From an uncultured virus (IMG/VR IMGVR_UViG_2061766007_003888) (lineage: Duplodnaviria; Heunggongvirae; Uroviricota; Caudoviricetes): a stretch of DNA of 64,000 nt. Each line of letters opens with the position of its first letter. Positions within the stretch are counted from its first letter, which is position 1. The notes below the pieces were generated by a model. It saw only the letters and a list, made by a program, of their open reading frames with translations. It did not search any database and was not told the origin of the DNA. The translations under genes and the position numbers were made by a program. Of the stretch, positions 8,833 to 56,116 are shown in pieces. The stretch is from the IMG/VR virus record IMGVR_UViG_2061766007_003888; one strand, given 5' to 3'.

Positions 8833-9037
8833 AATCTGTAGAACCGATTAGCGTTCGACTTCGATANNNNNNNNNNACCGAGTTCGCGGGGTATTATATG
8901 ATGGTATTCTATCTCGTCACGGTTTTCCGTCTGATAATCGCAGCCGGGCCAGTGACATATATATTTGAGCTTCACGCTTTATATATAAGAAAAACCGAAC
9001 GGGAATCGTTCGGTTTTCTTTTAATCTGTAGAACCGA

Positions 9038-10120
9038 TTAGCGTTCGACTTCGATACCCGTGGCTTCGAGTCCGGCAATAGCCTTTTCGATCTGGGCAGC
9101 TGTACCGGTAATGGTAACAGTGCTGGTGTCGAAATCAGATTCGTAGGTGACCTTGGAGTTGGAGTCAAGAATCATCTCAGCGGCGTCGACATCGTCGACC
9201 TTGACAGCGACGGAAGTCTTTTCGGAACGCGGAGCAGCGGCCGGACGGTCGAGCTTCGTCATTTCGATACCGCGCTTGCCGAGCATATCGGCGACGGCAG
9301 CAGCCTTGGACGGGGTAGCGATGAATTCGATGTTGCCAGCTTCGTCAGCGGTGGCGCCAGCAATACCGGCCTTGGAGAGGGCGATATTGACAAGCTTTTC
9401 CTTACCGGCCGGAACTTCGATGACATACTTGTCAGCGTTACGGGAAGCGCGAGAGCCGGCAGTGAGGTTGTTGATGGCGTTCTCGAGGGCGTTAAGTTCG
9501 ACTTCGTAAGCGTCGGCACCATCGAGTTCCCAAATCTGGGCGAGCTTGCCCTTCATGGATTCAATAGCGCGTTCGCCGCCGCCGGAACGGTAAGAGTTCT
9601 TGAGGCACTGGATGGCACGCTTGATGTTGCCAGTTTCGATGGCGGTATTGAAGTCAAGGCCGTCCTTGGCACCGTGGGTGGAGTTCGTGGTCTTGACGGC
9701 GTTGATGTCGTCATTGGCGATTGCTTCGGCATAGCCGCCGTCAATCATCATGTTGTAGACCTTGAGGTCGCCCGGATTGTAGTTTTCTTCGCCGTCGGCG
9801 CCCTGGCTTTCAATTTCAGCCTGGAGCTTTTCCCATGCATCGGCATACTTGGCATAGACCTTGTCACCGATGGAGGTATCCTTGGTCTTACCGGACTTGA
9901 AATTGGAACGCTTGGAGTCGATGGAGTTAATCAGGGAAAGACATGCGAGAGCGGCAGGACCTGCACCCTGGACCTTCTTGGACATTTCGTTCAGCATTTC
10001 CGGTTCAGGAATGCGTTCGACGATAGATTCAACAAGGCGGTCAAATTTTTCCCACTTCGGGTCTTCCTTAACCGTATAACCAACGGACTGAAGAAGTTTG
10101 GTAGCTTCGAAAAGATTCAT
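9038..10120 (-). CDS. hypothetical late protein, putative head-internal protein
   Basis: 360-aa ORF, AGGAG RBS, TATAAATA upstream, N-terminus MNLFEATKLLQSVGYTVKE. Confidence 0.7.
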   Translation of the reverse strand: MNLFEATKLLQSVGYTVKEDPKWEKFDRLVESIVERIPEPEMLNEMSKKVQGAGPAALACLSLINSIDSKRSNFKSGKTKDTSIGDKVYAKYADAWEKLQAEIESQGADGEENYNPGDLKVYNMMIDGGYAEAIANDDINAVKTTNSTHGAKDGLDFNTAIETGNIKRAIQCLKNSYRSGGGERAIESMKGKLAQIWELDGADAYEVELNALENAINNLTAGSRASRNADKYVIEVPAGKEKLVNIALSKAGIAGATADEAGNIEFIATPSKAAAVADMLGKRGIEMTKLDRPAAAPRSEKTSVAVKVDDVDAAEMILDSNSKVTYESDFDTSTVTITGTAAQIEKAIAGLEATGIEVER

Positions 10121-10220
10121 TTTAAATATTCTCCTATTTTAGTTTTATATTTTATTTATAAAAGTTTTTTCTGACAAATTTTAAGAATATTATAAATAAT
10201 AGAGAAATTTAGGAGAATTT

Positions 10221-11525
10221 ATGAAACTTAACGAAGCAGAAACCGAAAAATTGTTCAGTATCGACGATATTGACACTGATTACATGATGCTCGATTTGGC
10301 CGACGCACCGGTTTCCAAACCGGAAGCCGTAATATATTTCGGTAAGGACGGAAAGATTTCCGGATTAGATACGATACTCATGTCTGTCGCCGTTCCGCCT
10401 CCGGTACCCGGCAAGAAATGTTCAGTGACAATCCAGTATACGCCGAAAAGCTACGATACGGACGTTACTACCGACCAGTTTACTGACGGCGTCTTCGAAG
10501 CCGACGAGACCGATGACGGCCTGATTGTCACGACGGAAGACCTGGAAGCCCTCGGCAAGATTATTTCCGCGGAGTTCGAACGCGAAGTCGATTACCCGTT
10601 CGACAACGAAAGCGTGCACGATAACGTCAACAATACGCTCAACCGTCTCGATTTCGCCGATGCTATCGCCTGGTACGTCAAGGAAGGCGCCGCGAAAACT
10701 ACGGAATACAAGTCTCTCTATAATGAATATATTAAGGAAAAGGACAAGAAACAGTCCGCAATAAAGGCCCGCGGCGGAAAGTCCAATAACGAGCTCCTCG
10801 TAGACGGCTTGAAAAAGAACCCGTATGTTACCAGGGTCGAAGTCATCGACAAGCAGACGGCAAGGTTTACCAAGTTGATCCGCGTCTATACGAAGATTAA
10901 CAAGGTTTACGACATCCTCTGCAATAGCGCCGGTACGAACTATGTGGTCAAGACCCACGGCGATTTCGGTAATTCAGTGAATACTGGTTCGTTCATGCAG
11001 GTCATAAGCAATGTCGGCAAGCGTATTACCGGTTTCATCGAACGTGAAAAGATGAGCAAGATGTCTAACCGTGAACGTCACGAGTATAACCGCAAGAAGT
11101 TGCAGGCAAGTCGTGAAGATGACGATGCAATCGACAACGACTGGGGTTCCGATATGGACGCGGACGAAGAAGCAGCTCTCGGTATCAAGGAATCTACCCG
11201 TTTCGAAAAGGAAATGTCCCTTTCCGAAGCCATAAAGATTCTCGAGGACCAGGGCATCACACTTCACGAACTGAACGAATCGGAAGAAATGGCGACTATC
11301 AAGTTTTCCGTCTATCTGAACGGCGAAGACCAACCCGAAGAAAAGGTCACGTGTACGGTTCAACGCCCGCTCAGCATAGCCAACATGATTGCGGATAATG
11401 GTAATAACTATGACGAAAAAACCAGTGAAAAATTTACCGATAGCGTACCGGATATAGTGTATAACTTGACCGGTAAGCATTGCAGTTATCACTGGTGCTT
11501 CGACATGACTCCTGAATTGGTATAA
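10221..11525 (+). CDS. hypothetical late protein, putative head-internal protein
   Basis: 434-aa ORF, TATAAATA at 10191 and AGGAG RBS; internal MSLSEAIKILEDQG motif. Confidence 0.7.
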   Translation: MKLNEAETEKLFSIDDIDTDYMMLDLADAPVSKPEAVIYFGKDGKISGLDTILMSVAVPPPVPGKKCSVTIQYTPKSYDTDVTTDQFTDGVFEADETDDGLIVTTEDLEALGKIISAEFEREVDYPFDNESVHDNVNNTLNRLDFADAIAWYVKEGAAKTTEYKSLYNEYIKEKDKKQSAIKARGGKSNNELLVDGLKKNPYVTRVEVIDKQTARFTKLIRVYTKINKVYDILCNSAGTNYVVKTHGDFGNSVNTGSFMQVISNVGKRITGFIEREKMSKMSNRERHEYNRKKLQASREDDDAIDNDWGSDMDADEEAALGIKESTRFEKEMSLSEAIKILEDQGITLHELNESEEMATIKFSVYLNGEDQPEEKVTCTVQRPLSIANMIADNGNNYDEKTSEKFTDSVPDIVYNLTGKHCSYHWCFDMTPELV

Positions 11526-11540
11526 GAATAAATTCAAAAT

Positions 11541-11570
11541 AAAAACCGGTCATTTGACCGGTTTCTTTTT
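11541..11570. terminator. bidirectional intrinsic terminator
   Basis: AAACCGGTCA-TT-TGACCGGTTT with A/T tracts on both sides, between convergent genes. Confidence 0.75.
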
Positions 11571-12594
11571 ATATCAGGAATTCGTCCATCGGGTTTTCCT
11601 CGAGCATCAGGTGCTGCCCGATTTTAATCCATCCGTTAATTCTGTACATCGTCTCGAAAAGCTGGCAGAACGACTTTCTGAACATCGTCTCGTAGTCTAC
11701 CGTGAACATGTTGTTGAATTCGTCGGGCCAGGTTTCCAGGAACGCGACAAAGTTTACCGGTTGAACACCCGGCTTGCCTATTTCCTTGTACTTGAACTCG
11801 TTATTCGGCAGGACATAGATATATTTCATCTTCGTGTTATTGCCGATTGGCGTAAGCTTGAGTCGCTTTTTTGCCAGGATATAATTATATATCAATGCGG
11901 CTTTTGCGCCGAAAATAACGGAAGTGTTCTCGCCCTTGTCGAACTCGAGACCGTTCTTCACGTAATAGTCGATGTCGTTAGGTATATACTTCTTATAGTT
12001 CGTGATACCTATGACTGCGGAAATTTCGTCAATCGGCGTCTTGCAGTATTGTTCGTATACCTTCATTATTTCGCGGTCGCAATAATCCTTTTTCGCGCCT
12101 GCACATATTTCAAATGCGAGCTTTTCTGCAGCTTCCTTACAAAAGTTTGGCATAGTGCTCTTTTTTATGCCTACACCCATAATTTTATGTTTCGGTTTGC
12201 TGAATGGATATGGGTGCCCTTCCTTATCGATAATATTACCTATATAAAGTTTACGGGCAAAACAAAACATATTCTTGAATATGTTTTCGCGATTGAATTT
12301 AATTTTATTCGTCGTATTTGTTTTTTGCGCGCGAATTAATAAAATTTTATTGAAGAAAGTTTGAAATACATGTTCGGCTTTTTTATAAAAGTCACGATAT
12401 TCTTCTTCCGTTTCAATTTTGACACCGGATTCTATTAATTTGCGCTTAAGTTCATTGATAGAAAAATATACGGATATCTAGGAGTCTGTGTCGTTATGTA
12501 CGGCACAGACATCCCTCCCTTTTACTTTAAGCGGTTCATGATTTTTAAATGTAAAATTTTCGTGTTGAATATAATCAACTTTATAAAATTTCAT
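11569..12594 (-). CDS. family-B DNA polymerase, C-terminal half (motif C, thumb), with in-frame TAG at codon 39
   Basis: ATG at 12594: MKFYKVDY...VCAVHNDTDS*ISVYFSINEL...KFNRENIFKNMFCFARKLY...KIMGVGIKKS; one frame throughout, only interruption is TAG at 12480-12478. Confidence 0.85.
12472..12483 (-). other. candidate programmed translational bypass site (TCC-TAG-ATA-TCC)
   Basis: matched Ser codons around a stop; skipping 9 nt restores DTDSVYF. Confidence 0.6.
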
Positions 12595-12601
12595 AATTAT
12601 A

Positions 12602-12609
12602 AAATATAG
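12602..12609 (-). promoter_or_regulatory. CTATATTT promoter-like motif for the polymerase C-half
   Basis: same motif precedes genes at 710, 15923, 23881, 28467, 32617, 42808 and 51049. Confidence 0.5.
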
Positions 12610-12612
12610 TAA

Positions 12613-13581
12613 TTAATTGTTGTTGTTATGAATGTTTGAAATAATATTTAATATTTTATTCTTCTCGGCATCTTGATTATGCAACCAATCGTATTCTTTA
12701 ATACGAACCAATAAAATACCTTTATTTTCACATAATAAATCTTTTTTATGATCTTGTTCCCATATATCCTTTGCGGTAATACCGGAATGTATAATAGTAT
12801 CGGGTTCATAAAATCTCGGATCCGCATGCCAGTATTTACCGTCAAATTCGAAAGCCAAATTTAATTCCGGCAAATATATATCAAGCTCTTTCCCGTCGAG
12901 AATCTTACGATCATTTCTTATAACATTTACATTTGTATTTTCTGTAATAAAATTATAAAGACTATTTTCACCGTCAGATGTTATCCCGGATATATGATTA
13001 CAATTCGTACATAATGGTGTATGAAGTATTAGGCGTATTTTTAGCGCCTGGTTCATAATATAAAAATCTGTATTACATATATTACAATGGCACTTATATA
13101 ATAAATTATTATATTCAATTAATTCACAATTTTGTCGACGTATTTCTTCTTGATATTTTTTAAATACATATTCTGTATTTCTAATTCGATGTAATTCTTT
13201 TGATTCTTCGGTATTATACAGATAATCGTGCCCATGTTTTCTTATATAATTGTCACGAGTATCAGCCCTACTTGAAACACCATTAGGAAACCAATTACCA
13301 TTTTTGCGTCGAGAATCGACAATTTTTTGATTTCTATCAGATGAATGTGTAGAGCAATAATTTGAACAATATTGATTATAACCTGTTTTTAATTTATTCG
13401 AAAACTTGGTAGGATTTCCGCACGCTTTACATATACCTTCATCTGGCGTTTTTAAAAATTGATCATAATATTCTTTTGCCGATAATTTATGCAATTTCTG
13501 AAAATGAGTACAAAGTGCATTTAAATTCTTAAATGTTTTATGACATATTGCACAAGTTGGTTCTATATCTCTATTATTCAT
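12613..13581 (-). mobile_element. free-standing homing endonuclease (zinc-finger N-terminus + Vsr/EDxHD/DUF559-like nuclease) inserted in the polymerase gene
   Basis: CAIC..H..H / CKAC..YCSNYC N-terminus; ELDIYLPELNLAFEFDGKYWHAD...DHKKD...GILLVRIKE C-terminus; AT-rich; overlaps the N-half stop. Confidence 0.8.
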
Positions 13582-15923
13582 CAATTCCTAGCATATCCGT
13601 ACTTTCATTAAATTCACATGCGTCGATCGATATTTCTTCGCCGTTACGTAATACGGTAATTTTATCATTATAACCATATGTATATATTTTATTATTTACC
13701 GTTAAATTTATGGTAGAATATTCTTTTTCGACATCTTTTATCAATGATACCGATTCATAATATTCGTTAAGGTACTTGGTCAGCCAGTCACGAAGCGTAA
13801 CACGGGCAGAACGACAAATAACACGTGCGCAATCTGGATCGTACAGGTGAAATCCCGGTGCAAGGCTTACACCGTAAACGGAGTTAATAATAATCTTCTT
13901 TACGCCCTGTCTATTGTCGTAAAGGTTGGCAAGTTCCATATTTCCGGCGTTTTCTGCCTCTTCCTGTAGGTCCTTATAATGCTTGCGTTCATCGAAAACC
14001 TTCTTGACGACATTCGGNNNNNNNNNNACCCTGCCTGTTGTCGTAAAGGTTGGCAAGTTCCATATTTCCGGCATTTTCTGCCTCTTCCTGCAGGTCCTTA
14101 TAATGCTTGCGTTCATCGAAAACCTTCTTGACGACATTCGGAAGAATCGCGTCGTCTGTCCTCAAGAAACCAACCTCGTTGACATCCGTAAGTATGACCT
14201 TACCGGATTCAATATCGATTTTCTTCGGATGGATAACCTTTACTTCAGGCGATATATTGAACTGCATGATATGGTGCGGGTAGGAAGACGTAATATCGAA
14301 CGACATATCGTCGTCATGCCTACCTGGATAATCATAACAATAACCGGCCTTCACCTGGAATTCAGGGAACGGATGTGGCCATTTCTTAAACTGTGAGTAG
14401 CTCGCGTTAAACAGCTGCTTCGACGTCAGACGGACACCGCGAACGGTCTTCGGTTTCCAGAGCTGCTCTATTTTCGCGATATGCTCTTCTACCGGATGGC
14501 CAGTATATATGTCGTTCATTATCAGGTATTTTTCGAATTCCGGGTTATTGTCTTCCCATTCTGTATTCTGATAGTAAATCGAGCCGTCGGCCTGCGGAAT
14601 CATGTAGCATTTTTCTTTCGCCCACCAGTCGACATGAGTTTTCTTCTTGTCATTCAACACGCGGTTCGTTTTATGCAAGAACCTAAGAATATAACCTGTC
14701 GTCGTAGGTACCTTGTTATAGATCTTGTCGAGCGTAACAATACAGTCGAACGCGTATTCGATAATGAGTTCGAATAACTTGAGCTTGTCGAAAAGCTTTT
14801 CGAGAAGAATAACGTCCTTGATATTATAGCATACGAAATTATCCCAGTCTGTCTTATAGGCTTCGTTGATGGAACCCGTATATTTCAATTTCTGGTCGCC
14901 AAGAACAAGATTGGAAACGAAGTTCAACGAATACGACGGTAATGGGTCATGCTTACCGAATGTCTTGTAGAGTTCCATGAAGTCTATAGAATAAAGCCCC
15001 GGAATTTCGAACGTGGCGCCGAGATCAACACCCTCGAGTTTACGGTCGGTAATCTCGTGTTTTACTGGATCAAGATTCAATGGCGACATCGCACGTTCCC
15101 ACATTACGTTTTTACCCGTAATTTCGCGGAGTTTCGCACAACGGTTAATGATATACGGAATATCATACGATACAGAATTCCATCCGGATATGATATCGAA
15201 ATCCATCGAACGGAACCATTTGAGCCATTTCCGAATCAGGTCTATTTCAGAAGAGCACGCTATATATATCGTATTGTTCAGTTTATCCTTGTCACCGAGA
15301 TACGGCTTCAGACCGAACGTATAACGTGTCTTTGTCTTAGTAGAATAGCACGTAATGAGGTTTATCGGCCAGTCTGCTTTTTCGGGCGCCGGAAATTCAT
15401 ACGATACGTAACATGAATTCGCGAATTTTACCCAGCAATTCTGTTCAATGTCGAATACTTCAAATTCTTCTTTCGGATACTTCATGTCGAACATATACAA
15501 CTCGACCTTCTTGAAAATCTTCTTTTCAAGATTACGTATATCTATCTCGAAATTGTCATAAAATTTCGATGAACCGGCGACTTCAATATCGAACAGACAT
15601 ACATTCCAGTCGTTGATATCGACTTCGAGATTCTCGAAGTCATATCGTTCGTGCATGAACTTGACTTCAGGCCGGAGGTCAGATTCGGCAATTATACAAT
15701 TGGAACTATTGCGCAAAACATCCATATCGCGGTCGCGGTTATACGAATGTTTCTTGACAGGATTCTTGTATATATCCTTGATGTTCGATTTGCCCGTAGG
15801 ATCCGTTATATAGCACCACGGCTTGTAATCGTAGGTGACCCAGTCTGTCGAACCCTGTTCCTTGAGCAATATCTTTCTACGCGAACGATCATAATAACAA
15901 TTTTTAAAGCCTAATTTCGCCAT
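13574..15923 (-). CDS. family-B DNA polymerase, N-terminal half (exonuclease, motifs A and B); duplicated segment at gap ~14018
   Basis: FDIEV (ExoI), GWNSVSYDIPYI (ExoII), YNIKDV (ExoIII), FDITSSYP (motif A), KIIINSVYG (motif B); no DTDS before the stop. Confidence 0.92.
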
Positions 15924-16007
15924 ATCAAAATAACCTAAAATACATATTAAATATAGAAAAATGGCGCGACTTGAAAATCGCGCCAATTTTTATCTAATTT
16001 TTTAATA

Positions 16008-30571: not shown

Positions 30572-31362
30572 ATGAAATGTGAAATTTGCGGCAACGAATA
30601 TGCCCATTTGGGCTTACATTTGAATTATAAACATAAAAATATAACGCAAAAAGAATATTACGATAAATATCTGAAATTACCAGAAGAAGGCTTTTGCTAT
30701 ACATGTAACAAGCCCCTTGAATATATAGATTTAAGTCACGGTTATAGGCATTATTGTAATGCAAAATGTGAATTGGCNNNNNNNNNNNNNNNNNNNNNNN
30801 NNNNNNNNNNNNNNNNNNNNNNNNNNNNNNNNNNNNNNNNNNNNNNNNNNNNNNNNNNNNNNNNNNNNNNNNNNNNNNNNNNNNNNNNNNNNNNNNNNNN
30901 NNNNNNNNNNNNNNNNNNNNNNNNAAATGGTACAAATGTAAAAGCCGCATATATGATATGTCATTCTACCGACGAAATGGAAAAACAACGGGTACAGACA
31001 CGTATCCAGAATAACGGCGGTAGTTATATGACGGAAGAACAAAAAAGAAAACTTCTTGAACTAACAAGCCAACCAGAAATAATTGAAAAACGTATACAAA
31101 GTAGGCGAGAACGATATGGCGATAAATATATGTCCGATACGGCATATAATAAACTAAAAAATAAACCGTATAATACATATTCCGATGTAAACATGGTGAA
31201 TTTTGTTCCACATGGAAACGGTTTATGCACATGTCATTGTGATATATGTGGCAAGGATTATGATATAGATTTAATGACGCTTCGTACACGTAGATATGCG
31301 AATCAAAATCCGTGTACTTATTGTAATCCGATAGGTAGTCATGTATTTTATTCTACGTCTGA
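30572..31362 (+). CDS. zinc-finger protein paralogous to the polymerase-splitting endonuclease; probable homing endonuclease (3' end lost in gap)
   Basis: CEIC..H..H..EYYDKYLK..EG.C..C..YCN..C and CHCDIC...CTYCN; AT-rich. Confidence 0.6.
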
Positions 31363-32023
31363 NNNNNNNNNNCCATTGCGATATATGCGACAAGGATTAT
31401 GATATAGATTTAATGACGCTTCGTACACGTAGATATGCGANNNNNNNNNNTGCGTTATATACCTTCTCGAACATTTTCTTGAGGTACGGCGTAGAAACGC
31501 TTATCACGTCGAGCAACGGGATTATCTTGCGCATACCGTCCATAATCATGTCCATGTTCTTGTGAACGTTATCATGGGCTGGATTATACGACGGGACACC
31601 GTCTTCGTCCTTATTGTCGATTTCGCCGGTTATGAACGTAAGATCATCGTATTCGGCGGCGAGCTTGTAACCGTATTTCGGCTGGAGTTCCTTGTANNNN
31701 NNNNNNAAAAATTTACAAAATTATTTTTCCGGATTTTCTTTATCGGAAGTGGGGAACTGANNNNNNNNNNCCGCTTGATAATATCGTAATCGTTCATGCT
31801 TTCAGGACGCTGAAACAGGATAGTCTTCGTACCGGCGAGCAGGTTAGGGTCGAATGTTATTCGCGGCAGGAGCACGGGAATGACACCCATGTCGTGCCCG
31901 TTGATATATTCAGTATTGTATCTCAGCCTTACATGGCTACATCCGGAAGTATCCTTCGGATATATGATAACCATTTCTTTGCCGTTGATATTTTTCGAAT
32001 TCGCATTAAGCATAGAATACTTC

Positions 32024-54855: not shown

Positions 54856-56116
54856 ATGACTTACACATGCAGGATATGCGGGTTTTCTACCGATGACCCG
54901 AACGAGATAGCACAGCACATAAAGAAGCTGCACAATATGGCATTGCAGGACTATTACGACAGGTTCGTGAAGAAACCCGGCGAAGGGCAGTGCAAGGTAT
55001 GCGGCAAGCCGACGACGTACAGGTCCATCGTGCAGGGTTACGCGGAATACTGCTCGCCGAGCTGTGCGAAAAAGGCGACGTACTGGAAAAACGACCCGGT
55101 CGAATTGACATGCGCCATTTGTGGTGCGGTCCTCAAGGGTACGAATAATGCGCATGTTTCCGCGGTAATGAGGAANNNNNNNNNNCGGAGCGGTCCTCAA
55201 GGGTACGAATAATGCGCATGTTTCCGCGGTAATGAGGAAACACCTGAAACGCGAGCACAAGATATACGAGCCGCGCATATATTACGACCGTTTCGTAAAG
55301 AAGGAAAACGAGGGTAAATGCCCGGTATGTGGGAAGGAAACGAAGTTCAACGGACTCATGTCCGGGTATGAACCGTATTGCAGCTCGTCATGTTACCAGA
55401 AGCAACTGAAGACGGATAAGTCCGCACCTAATANNNNNNNNNNNNNNNNNNNNNNNNNNNNNNNNNNNNNNNNNNNNNNNNNNNNNNNNNNNNNNNNNNN
55501 NNNNNNNNNNNNNNNNNNNNNNNNNNNNNNNNNNNNNNNNNNNNNNNNNNNNNNNNNNNNNNNNNNNNNNNNNNNNNNNNNNNNNNNNNNNNNNNGACCG
55601 TAGAAACGGTAGACGGCGACAAGGTCGAGGTAAAGACGGAAATTTCNNNNNNNNNNTCCGGTATGTGGGAAGGAAACGAAGTTCAACGGACTCATGTCCG
55701 GATACGAACCGTATTGCAGCTCGACATGTTACCAGAAGCAACTGAAGACGGATAAGTCCGCGCCCAATACGAAGCTGCACATGCTGATGAAATTCAAGGA
55801 AAAGGCGAAAGAGACCGTCGAGAAGATAATGGAAAAGTACGTAAATTTCCTTAAGAACGACAAGCGGATCGGCTGGTCCGACAACAGGACGGATCCGGTA
55901 ACGCATGTAAATTACAAGGATACGAGAACCGTAGAAACGGTAGACGGCGACAAGGTCGAGGTAAAGACGGAAATTTCGTGTTCTACGCAACGTGATCCGT
56001 GGACTGGAAACCAGGTAAGCTACAGGCCGAAGTACGAGGAATGCCGACAGAATGTACGGTTCGACGAGATAATAGAGGACGATACGTCGCTCGATGAAAC
56101 CGAGTGGTGTCGGTAA
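54856..56116 (+). CDS. double zinc-finger protein related to the endonuclease N-terminus, no nuclease domain (gapped, duplicated)
   Basis: two CxxC..H..H..YYDRFVKK..EG.C..CGK.T...GY..YCS..C units. Confidence 0.6.

Follow-up and report, generated by a model that had tools for sequence, protein, structure and literature searches.

The stretch of DNA analysed here (the window, 64,000 nucleotides (nt)) comes from an uncultured rumen phage held as IMG/VR record IMGVR_UViG_2061766007_003888, and its minus strand carries 43B, the downstream piece of a split family-B DNA polymerase. Within catalytic motif C of this polymerase, the gene is interrupted by 9 extra nt that open with a stop codon and close with a copy of the serine codon standing just before them. 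Judging from the sequences of related loci, we consider it probable that these 9 nt form a micro coding gap, which translating ribosomes would hop over from the one serine codon to the other. This reading is carried by inserts of 7, 8, or 9 nt at exactly the same site in relatives, by a difference in insert length between near-identical strains, by the constraint on the frame beyond the insert, and by a second gene of the same design next to an endonuclease of the same kind.

Reading frame at the interrupted motif

On the minus strand, 43B opens with the ATG at 12594-12592, and its codons 1-37 (12484..12594) make up a leader of ~16 residues exclusive to split forms of the polymerase, followed by a stretch that is homologous to unsplit polymerases and ends in HNDTD. 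After ...CAT AAC GAC ACA GAC comes the putative take-off codon, TCC (codon 38, 12481..12483), for the serine of DTDS, and then TAG (12480-12478), the filler ATA (12477-12475), and a second TCC (12474-12472) as the putative landing codon, beyond which the sequence continues as GTA TAT TTT. As for T4 gene 60, the length of the gap includes the landing codon, and here it spans 12472..12480. Translated directly, the site reads MKFYKVDYIQHENFTFKNHEPLKVKGRDVCAVHNDTDS-stop-ISVYF, and the end of the upstream frame can also be written ...RDVCAVHNDTDS-stop-ISVYF. Downstream of the landing TCC, 301 codons stay open as far as the TAA at 11569-11571. This resumed frame (11569..12471, minus strand; VYFSINEL...) covers the rest of the palm and the thumb, as indicated by tblastn to T4-like gp43 over residues 22-322 and by a profile alignment to RB69 gp43. 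The whole site lies within an unbroken stretch of 5.1 kb (8877-14017).

Calling open reading frames (ORFs) with translation table 11 gives only 12478..12594 (38 amino acids (aa)) and 11569..12270 (233 aa), and leaves the catalytic motif orphaned. TAG is an ordinary terminator in the window, where it ends 14 of the 67 ORFs of at least 100 aa, and ARAGORN found no transfer RNA (tRNA) genes there. The original prediction, which was made from the letters alone, had read the minus strand as TCC TAG ATA TCC inside the DTDS motif with an open frame beyond it, and this reading is exact. It had further held that TAG is not recoded genome-wide and that the ORF track misses the motif, the called 233-aa ORF starting only at 12270; the counts above bear out both statements.

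The DTDS stretch can be taken as catalytic motif C of a T4-type family-B polymerase, because a profile of 7 gapless relatives aligns without interruption to RB69 gp43. Here, RDVCAVHNDTDSVY is matched with GEAFVLYGDTDSIY from residue 613 (residues 613-792) with no insertion and an E value of 7e-7. A search of solved structures with the single 43B sequence gave no match, and it was the profile search that succeeded. With tblastn, 43B retrieved gp43 of T4-like phages at 25-30% identity and no better-matching genes, and megablast against 50,697 phage records revealed no close annotated relatives. The unsplit relatives L004-L007 (56% identical) have one continuous gene reading ...ACIIHNDTDSCYM, and hence the HN before DTDS is native to the clade. 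An intein had been suspected from the VHN/DTDS boundary and from strand-like motifs at the split, and was ruled out by the native HNDTDS of these unsplit forms; moreover, there was no match to the Hint (intein) family even up to E=10, and the +1 residue is Asp.

Insert variants in related loci and strains

Relatives (L001-L052) were gathered by a protein search with 43B and by degenerate patterns (VCAVHNDTDS, and HNDTDS plus a stop). Among the 22 loci from the first pattern, HNDTDS is followed directly by VYF, with no insert, in 15, and the other 7 have an insert at exactly this point. Together with the window and L037, these amount to 7 distinct variants. Written as take-off/filler/landing, they are TCC/TAGATA/TCC in the window (9 nt), TCC/TAGA/TCC in L016, L023, and L030 (7 nt), TCC/TAAG/TCT in L029 (7 nt), TCC/TAAA/TCT in L034 (7 nt), TCT/TGAAG/TCT in L027 (8 nt), TCC/CGGAG/TCT in L028 (8 nt), and TCC/TAGAAA/TCT in L037 (9 nt).

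The triplet after the take-off codon is a stop (TAG, TAA, or TGA) in six of the seven variants, and CGG in L028. In all seven, the landing codon is a second TCY codon (Y, C or T) that sits just before collinearity with the relatives resumes, and the same tRNA could read both take-off and landing. It is also the first UCN triplet 3' of the take-off in every variant (six were scanned, and L037 was judged by reading its sequence). Removing the gap restores DTDS-VY(F/L), or DTDS-CYL in L037, and so matches the gapless and unsplit relatives. Since the same site has an insert in 7 variants, each of them ending in a second TCY, the pattern as aligned here is beyond chance. Wider pattern scans of viral contigs yielded one new variant (L037), five unrelated chance matches, and the L016 contig again. 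The relaxed pattern C-x-V-HNDTDS added no new viral contig, and in prokaryote genomes it gave chance matches in Myroides only.

The window stretch occurs in runs of 13 studies, these being bovine and sheep gut metagenomes. A Logan contig of 13,893 nt from run X1 spans 12100-13000, where it differs at 5 of 901 nt and has no indel, and thus has the same 9 nt; with a contig word depth of 23.6, the gap-bearing phage is the main form in that run. Contigs from runs X3 and X4, which belong to two other studies, have 5 and 7 differences in the 901 nt and are 2 nt shorter at 12474, giving TCC TAG A TCC. This 7-nt form is the commoner one in the lineage of the window. Because near-identical strains (5-7 differences in 901 nt) have 7 nt in the one case and 9 nt in the other, the frame of the gap appears not to matter.

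Constraint on the downstream frame and synonymous change in the leader

When the window (9 nt) is compared with L030 (7 nt), the 301 codons downstream of the landing site show 79 synonymous (Sd) and 4 nonsynonymous (Nd) changes, which corresponds to a ratio of nonsynonymous to synonymous rates (dN/dS) of 0.008. The ratio is 0.027 for L029-L034 and 0.09 for L027-L028. The 69 codons that separate the landing site from the first in-frame ATG are equally constrained (Sd 21, Nd 2), from which it follows that translation must enter the downstream frame at the gap. For the endonuclease of the window and L030, the ratio of nonsynonymous to synonymous proportions (pN/pS) is 0.053, and since its pS (0.48) is about that of the polymerase (0.45), the cassette and the gap appear to have been carried through the whole divergence. 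The pattern of substitutions indicates that 43B is not a recently broken gene.

In the leader, the 36 nt directly 5' of the take-off hold only 5 variable positions over all variants, though the endonucleases are merely 26-39% identical, and the same 36 nt vary freely at synonymous sites in gapless relatives. Over the 38-codon leader, pS was 0.049 as against 0.454 downstream (Fisher p=2e-4), and 0.32 as against 0.70 (p=6e-4). No obvious residue distinguishes the leaders of gap-bearing forms from those of gapless ones.

The endonuclease and its cassette

Between 43B and the upstream polymerase piece, 43A, lies a gene for a putative free-standing homing endonuclease of 323 aa (12613..13584, minus strand), with a C2H2-type zinc finger at the N-terminus and a VSR/DUF559-like motif, EFDGxxWH, at the C-terminus. 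The protein matches phrog_3339 ('homing endonuclease', E=4e-26), and phrog_22677 is included among the endonuclease matches; Pfam scores stay below threshold for MTES_1575 (20.3 bits, cut-off 38.2) and DUF559 (14.6, cut-off 20.6). An endonuclease gene stands between 43A and 43B in every gap-bearing locus, in a spacer of 979-1242 nt (the L027 contig holds the last 116 aa only). Among gapless loci with enough flank, 43A meets 43B at +1, -11, or -20 nt in 13 of 14, with L025 left unresolved. The co-occurrence of insert and endonuclease, which had been proposed as a check, is therefore seen here, as all 7 variants have the gene and 13 of the 14 gapless loci do not.

The endonucleases of the polymerase loci are of three types that align partly, at 26-39% identity, and have the zinc finger and an EFxGxxxH motif in common. 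As a single query, type C found no relative in viral contigs. Elsewhere in the window, further copies of the zinc-finger module (35-46% identical over 50-70 residues) lie at 30572-31402 and 54856-56116, in stretches broken by runs of N.

When the downstream coding sequence is placed on a tree, the gap label has to change at least twice in 200 of 200 bootstrap trees. The gap-bearing L034 falls with L018 and L031, and the gap-bearing L029 with L019 and L025, these last four loci being gapless. L034 and L018 cease to be homologous where 43A ends, and become so again 37 nt ahead of the gap; identity is 97.9% over 2 kb, the 7 nt are the sole indel, and substitutions are dense until ~25 nt beyond the landing codon. 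Because homology breaks at the end of 43A and resumes near the gap, the cassette is taken to bring three things together, namely the gene of the endonuclease, a new leader for 43B, and the gap. A relative of the L015 type, without gap or endonuclease, was seen as short contigs in runs X1 and X3 (with loose ends at window 12481 and 12513), and potential homing targets thus share the habitat of the gap-bearing phage.

At the take-off site of L027, L028, and L029, the native Thr-Asp-Ser-Val codons (ACAGAC-TCT-GT) form a near-palindrome, which the insert in L028 turns into a perfect inverted repeat (ACAGACTCC C GGAGTCTGT). This near-palindrome may be the target site of the endonuclease, or else a footprint of how the insert originated.

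A glycosyltransferase gene with the same design

A profile of the endonuclease led to 80 loci, which were screened for a codon followed by a stop, a matching codon 4-12 nt on, and a long open frame. The 48 hits were mostly evident chance, with the polymerase site recovered among them. One site, however, was recurrent, and lay 26-28 codons into a gene for a glycosyltransferase (phrog_7162) that starts shortly behind the endonuclease gene; the gaps at this site are at codon 27-29, ~80 nt beyond the end of the endonuclease. With 80 more loci fetched by the glycosyltransferase, the two sets together comprise 61 distinct sequences. Of these, 42 are gapless and read ...SGV-G-KFRS with a single Gly (Ser in 2), and the other 19 (L079, L082, L083, L093, L096, L104, L112, L115, L128, L129, L131, L134, L159, L185, L194, L197, L209, L213, and L214) have gaps of 5-12 nt (6 nt in 12 of them, and 5, 7, 8, 9, 10, 11, and 12 nt once each).

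A stop directly follows the take-off codon in all 19. Moreover, take-off and landing codons co-vary, GGY being paired with GGY (Gly/Gly) and AGY with AGY (Ser/Ser). Pairs of unequal gap length gave pN/pS values of 0.2-0.44, with pS saturated. In the set found by the glycosyltransferase, and with 3 loci short of upstream flank set aside, the endonuclease is present in 10 of 10 gap-bearing loci versus 5 of 38 gapless ones (p=5e-7).

We also noticed that all 26 take-off codons (7 from the polymerase and 19 from the glycosyltransferase) end in C or T, being TCY, GGY, or AGY. Gapless glycosyltransferases have GGA or GGG at the take-off position in 27 of 42 cases. It may be that a G at the wobble position is what a tRNA needs in order to hop well.

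On the strength of both genes, the polymerase case appears to be one instance of a wider class. We lean somewhat towards the view that efficient, frame-independent natural stop-hopping over 5-12 nt is a general trick of VSR-like homing endonucleases in phages, in which the nuclease would guard its own genome by a stop-containing insert in its target, be it the DTDS motif of an essential polymerase, that the ribosome erases. Beyond this, a hairpin that ends in the take-off codon may be all that is required as a signal.

Predicted hairpin at the take-off codon

RNAfold predicts a hairpin at 12481..12514 (minus strand) whose 3' arm ends in the take-off codon, with a GUCUGUG/CACAGAC stem and the UCC paired with an upstream GGA. 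Its predicted energy is -12.4 to -17.1 kcal/mol in 7 of 7 gap variants, versus -6.4 to -12.3 kcal/mol in gapless relatives. In the stem of L037, a G-C pair is replaced by A-U, and in the alignment of the hairpin 96% of the cells are paired, with 2 pairs changed on both sides. We treat this modelled hairpin as a lead and not as a result.

Weighing the ribosomal hop against other explanations

A hop from serine to serine is favoured because, of the possible events, only a frame-independent hop restores DTDSVY in every variant. It serves the 7-, 8-, and 9-nt forms alike, whereas readthrough or a suppressor tRNA would serve only the 9-nt form, and a +1 shift only the 7-nt form. The hop itself, which the original prediction had put at 9 nt, is in this way supported by gaps of 7, 8, and 9 nt that keep the matched serine codons; its fixed length does not hold, as 7 nt is the commoner form in the lineage. 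The identical take-off and landing codons stipulated there are indeed found in the window (TCC), although across the variants a match to one tRNA (TCC/TCT) suffices. The contrast that had been drawn with suppression and readthrough was well placed, since 7 versus 9 nt in near-identical strains rules these out as the common mechanism, and a single frameshift with them. Reassignment of TAG or a suppressor tRNA had also been entertained as an explanation in its own right, and was rejected given that 14 of 67 long ORFs end in TAG, that the window has no tRNA gene, that the 7- and 8-nt gaps are out of frame, and that relatives have TAA, TGA, or CGG instead.

Another kind of recoding that translates part of the gap seems improbable. 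This would be a +1 shift for 7 nt, a +2 or -1 shift for 8 nt, and readthrough or stop skipping for 9 nt, and would leave 2-3 extra residues in the product, such as DTDS-(K/R/E/I)-S-VYF. The landing-frame codon before the landing serine is for Lys or Arg in 5 of 7 variants (AGA, AAG, AAA, AAG, and AAA, the others being GAG and ATA), and so is possibly translated; frameshifting at stops and slow codons is, moreover, well known, as stated in the parts of Atkins et al. (2016, PMC5009743) drawn on here. Yet three mechanisms would be required at a single site, with a switch between strains that have 5-7 differences of 901. The P-site tRNA-Ser would be without a cognate overlapping codon, the +1 triplet being CCU or CUU, and the second TCY serine codon in 7 of 7 variants would be left unexplained. 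In RB69 gp43, as in all 15 gapless loci, DTDS is followed by no insertion, and 12 glycosyltransferase variants hold only TGA or TAA between the matched codons, with one gap of just 5 nt. We regard it as more doubtful again that the gene ends at TAG, with the downstream part either made by internal initiation, as in a three-piece polymerase, or not made at all, as in a defective copy. With the polymerase already in two pieces, a further split is conceivable, and there is a landing-frame ATG after GGGAGG, 12 codons upstream, in the 7-nt variants, a TTG overlapping the TGA in L027, and a second frame break in L037. This upstream ATG, however, stems from conserved Asp-Val codons that gapless relatives have as well, and in the 9-nt form it does not share the landing frame. 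In both the window and L028, that frame contains no ATG, GTG, or TTG for the first 69 codons, over which the selection on the protein is as given above, and any internally initiated product would be without the catalytic DTD. A decaying copy, which had been named beforehand as a finding that would speak against the hop, is contradicted by the dN/dS of 0.008-0.09 downstream of the gap, over a divergence matched by the endonuclease, and a dead gene also fits poorly with a carrier that is the main form in run X1 (word depth 23.6).

We give little credence to the extra bases being removed by excision or editing of the RNA, or being missing from part of the DNA population. To our knowledge, no bacterial or phage mechanism removes 5-12 nt of such varied sequence, and a stop after the take-off together with matched codons are features of decoding and not of splicing. 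As for a mixed population, the gap is found in contigs of three runs, with no gap-free version of the same strain, bearing in mind that contigs drop rare variants. Hardly any weight remains for an artefact of assembly or sequencing. The window is, admittedly, a heavily gapped scaffold with 49 runs of N and duplicated gap edges; the site nevertheless lies in an unbroken stretch, and the 7 insert variants come from independent assemblies of several studies.

A number of points weigh against the hop as read here. After its take-off codon, L028 has CGG in place of a stop, and CGG is not rare in ORFs of the window, at 5.3 per 1000 codons (for which reason the idea of CGG as a "hungry codon" in L028 was dropped). 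The 9-nt form was found only in the window and in run X1, which may both stem from a single sample. Every sequence comes from a metagenome assembly, and searches of phage records gave no cultured phage with the arrangement; none of the listed runs is registered as RNA, and X20, a run supposed to be RNA, has no coverage of 12385-12519. In L037, one extra base lies ~310 nt downstream of the gap (~2330-2345, AAA AGG C GGA GAT versus AAG CGC GGT GAC in L028), and may reflect faulty assembly, decay, or a +1 site at the AGG/CGG codons. The low synonymous change in the leader could come from recent gene conversion, and in L029-L034 it is not significant (pS of 0.19 versus 0.35, p=0.22). For the glycosyltransferase, there is one mismatched pair (GGT/GGA), and 5 loci have an endonuclease and yet no gap, with different codons around the site. 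Some gapless relatives have hairpins nearly as stable as those of gap variants (-11 to -12.3 kcal/mol), and the covariation in the hairpin is not significant, being reached by 86 of 500 shuffles with only 4 distinct sequences. Lastly, hops in synthetic constructs are low-level in the account of PMC5009743 available to us, and an essential polymerase needs a usable yield.

Proposed mechanism

In the hop as we picture it, peptidyl-tRNA-Ser would be held on UCC (codon 38) in the P site with the slow-to-decode UAG in the A site. The anticodon would then release the mRNA, which would slide by 9 nt (7 or 8 nt in relatives) until the anticodon re-pairs with the next UCY triplet. Decoding would restart at GUA and give ...HNDTDS-VYF..., with motif C uninterrupted, and the tryptic peptide across the junction would be DVCAVHNDTDSVYFSINELK. 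The hairpin that ends at the take-off codon would refold, and may help to draw the mRNA forward. Such refolding would recall T4 gene 60, for which a preprint (bioRxiv 10.1101/2024.12.09.627546), in the portion seen, proposes that 5' stem-loops drive forward movement; the hairpin here likewise lies 5' of the take-off.

As regards the cassette, the analogy with MobA and gene 60 suggests that the gap is part of a mobile element and gives immunity to the endonuclease. The insert would break the endonuclease target, so that carriers escape self-cleavage, whereas gapless relatives would be cut and would then copy the cassette.

Comparison with known bypass systems

The closest likeness is to T4 gene 60 and MobA, for which we relied on parts of Manning & Atkins (bioRxiv 10.1101/2022.08.31.505936). 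As described there, both systems have a gene in two pieces with a tail on the upstream piece, a free-standing endonuclease between the pieces, and, on the downstream one, a new leader joined to a homologous stretch. In both, the gap lies ~40 codons in, one tRNA reads take-off and landing, gaps may shift the frame, and a stop (or, in some members, another codon) directly follows the take-off. Moreover, some relatives in either system keep the split without endonuclease and gap, and differing endonuclease families, VSR included, are found at the same site. In contrast, the target is the Toprim domain of the topoisomerase large subunit there and motif C of a DNA polymerase here, and the endonuclease is the HNH protein MobA there and a VSR-like one with a zinc finger here. 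According to the same parts of that source, the gene 60 gap is 50 nt (the shortest reported being 20), its codons are for Gly or Asp, and it has a take-off stem-loop and a mini Shine-Dalgarno sequence 5-7 nt before the landing. Here, the codons are Ser UCY, and the polymerase gaps, at 7-9 nt, are too short to hold such elements; a hairpin is predicted only 5' of the take-off. No sequence homology was detected between the present cassette and the gene 60/MobA element. From its arrangement, then, the cassette seems to work like that system, but it is no member of it.

In its decoding, the site is more akin to the synthetic 'stop-hops' (tRNA hopping) of E. coli, where, in the excerpts of Atkins et al. 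(2016, PMC5009743) that we used, a stop stands between matched codons, the peptidyl-tRNA pairs anew a short way downstream, and one amino acid is specified by the stretch. Matched codons around a stop and one amino acid per stretch are likewise the case here. Those hops are, however, engineered and low-level, while the present ones would be natural, 7-9 nt long (5-12 nt in the glycosyltransferase), and located in an essential gene under selection. Of natural in-frame stop hopping, the same excerpts say that 'no occurrences are known', though it had long been expected. A phage coding gap triggered by UUA resembles ours in being short and having a slow A-site codon, and mass spectrometry detected its junction peptide in material expressed in E. 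coli. It differs in that the codon is the rare UUA and the proposed role is regulatory, and the word 'homing' is absent from the main text of its paper. The mitochondrial 'byp' elements of Magnusiomyces capitatus are also short blocks inserted in protein genes and neutralised by translational jumping; they differ, in what we have of PMC5009743, by their mitochondrial setting, relaxed wobble, 81 sites, and often imperfectly matched codons, and that text mentions no endonuclease.

In the literature searched (most subscription journals fell outside its scope), we came across neither a phage DNA polymerase with a coding gap nor a stop-hop occurring in nature. What would be new is a bypass, linked to a homing endonuclease, that is cut down to 7-9 nt and set in the catalytic motif of an essential polymerase. 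The 7 and 19 natural variants offer material for testing the stop-hops so long expected in nature. If the hop does supply an essential polymerase, short-range bypass would be efficient without the signal set of the 50-nt gene 60 gap, and the minimum needed for release and re-pairing would have to be revised. Bypass as immunity to an endonuclease, an idea tied to a single gene and nuclease family, would also be widened into a general strategy, and, were the general-trick reading true, this would be the smallest portable bypass element known. A unit of 10-12 nt that specifies one amino acid would be handy for mechanistic and synthetic work. More practically, gene callers split or truncate such genes, and phage polymerases and other enzymes are misannotated as broken.

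Other features of the polymerase locus

The upstream piece, 43A (13574..15986, minus strand), holds the exonuclease together with motifs A and B, and has an additional tail at its C-terminus; its Pfam matches are DNA_pol_B_exo1 (E=5.8e-15) and DNA_pol_B. A scaffold gap of 10 N (14018-14027) runs through this piece, and the ORFs 13989..15986 and 13574..14137 on the two sides of the gap repeat the same 38 residues (PNVVKKVFDERKHYKDLQEEAENAGNMELANLYDNRQG). This repeat is an assembly seam, that is, an unmerged overlap of the scaffold, and no real duplication. There is only one polymerase within the window.

Relative to the unsplit L004-L007, split forms have ~57 additional residues at the junction. 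In L002, L003, and L008-L012, which have no endonuclease, the polymerase is yet split at the same point, with the ~57 extra residues and with 43A abutting or overlapping 43B. By analogy with what is described for MobA, these forms may go back to an earlier insertion that was later lost. Two relatives of the polymerase, L005 and L022, are on contigs of 415,750 and 411,059 nt, and its lineage thus probably includes jumbo phages.

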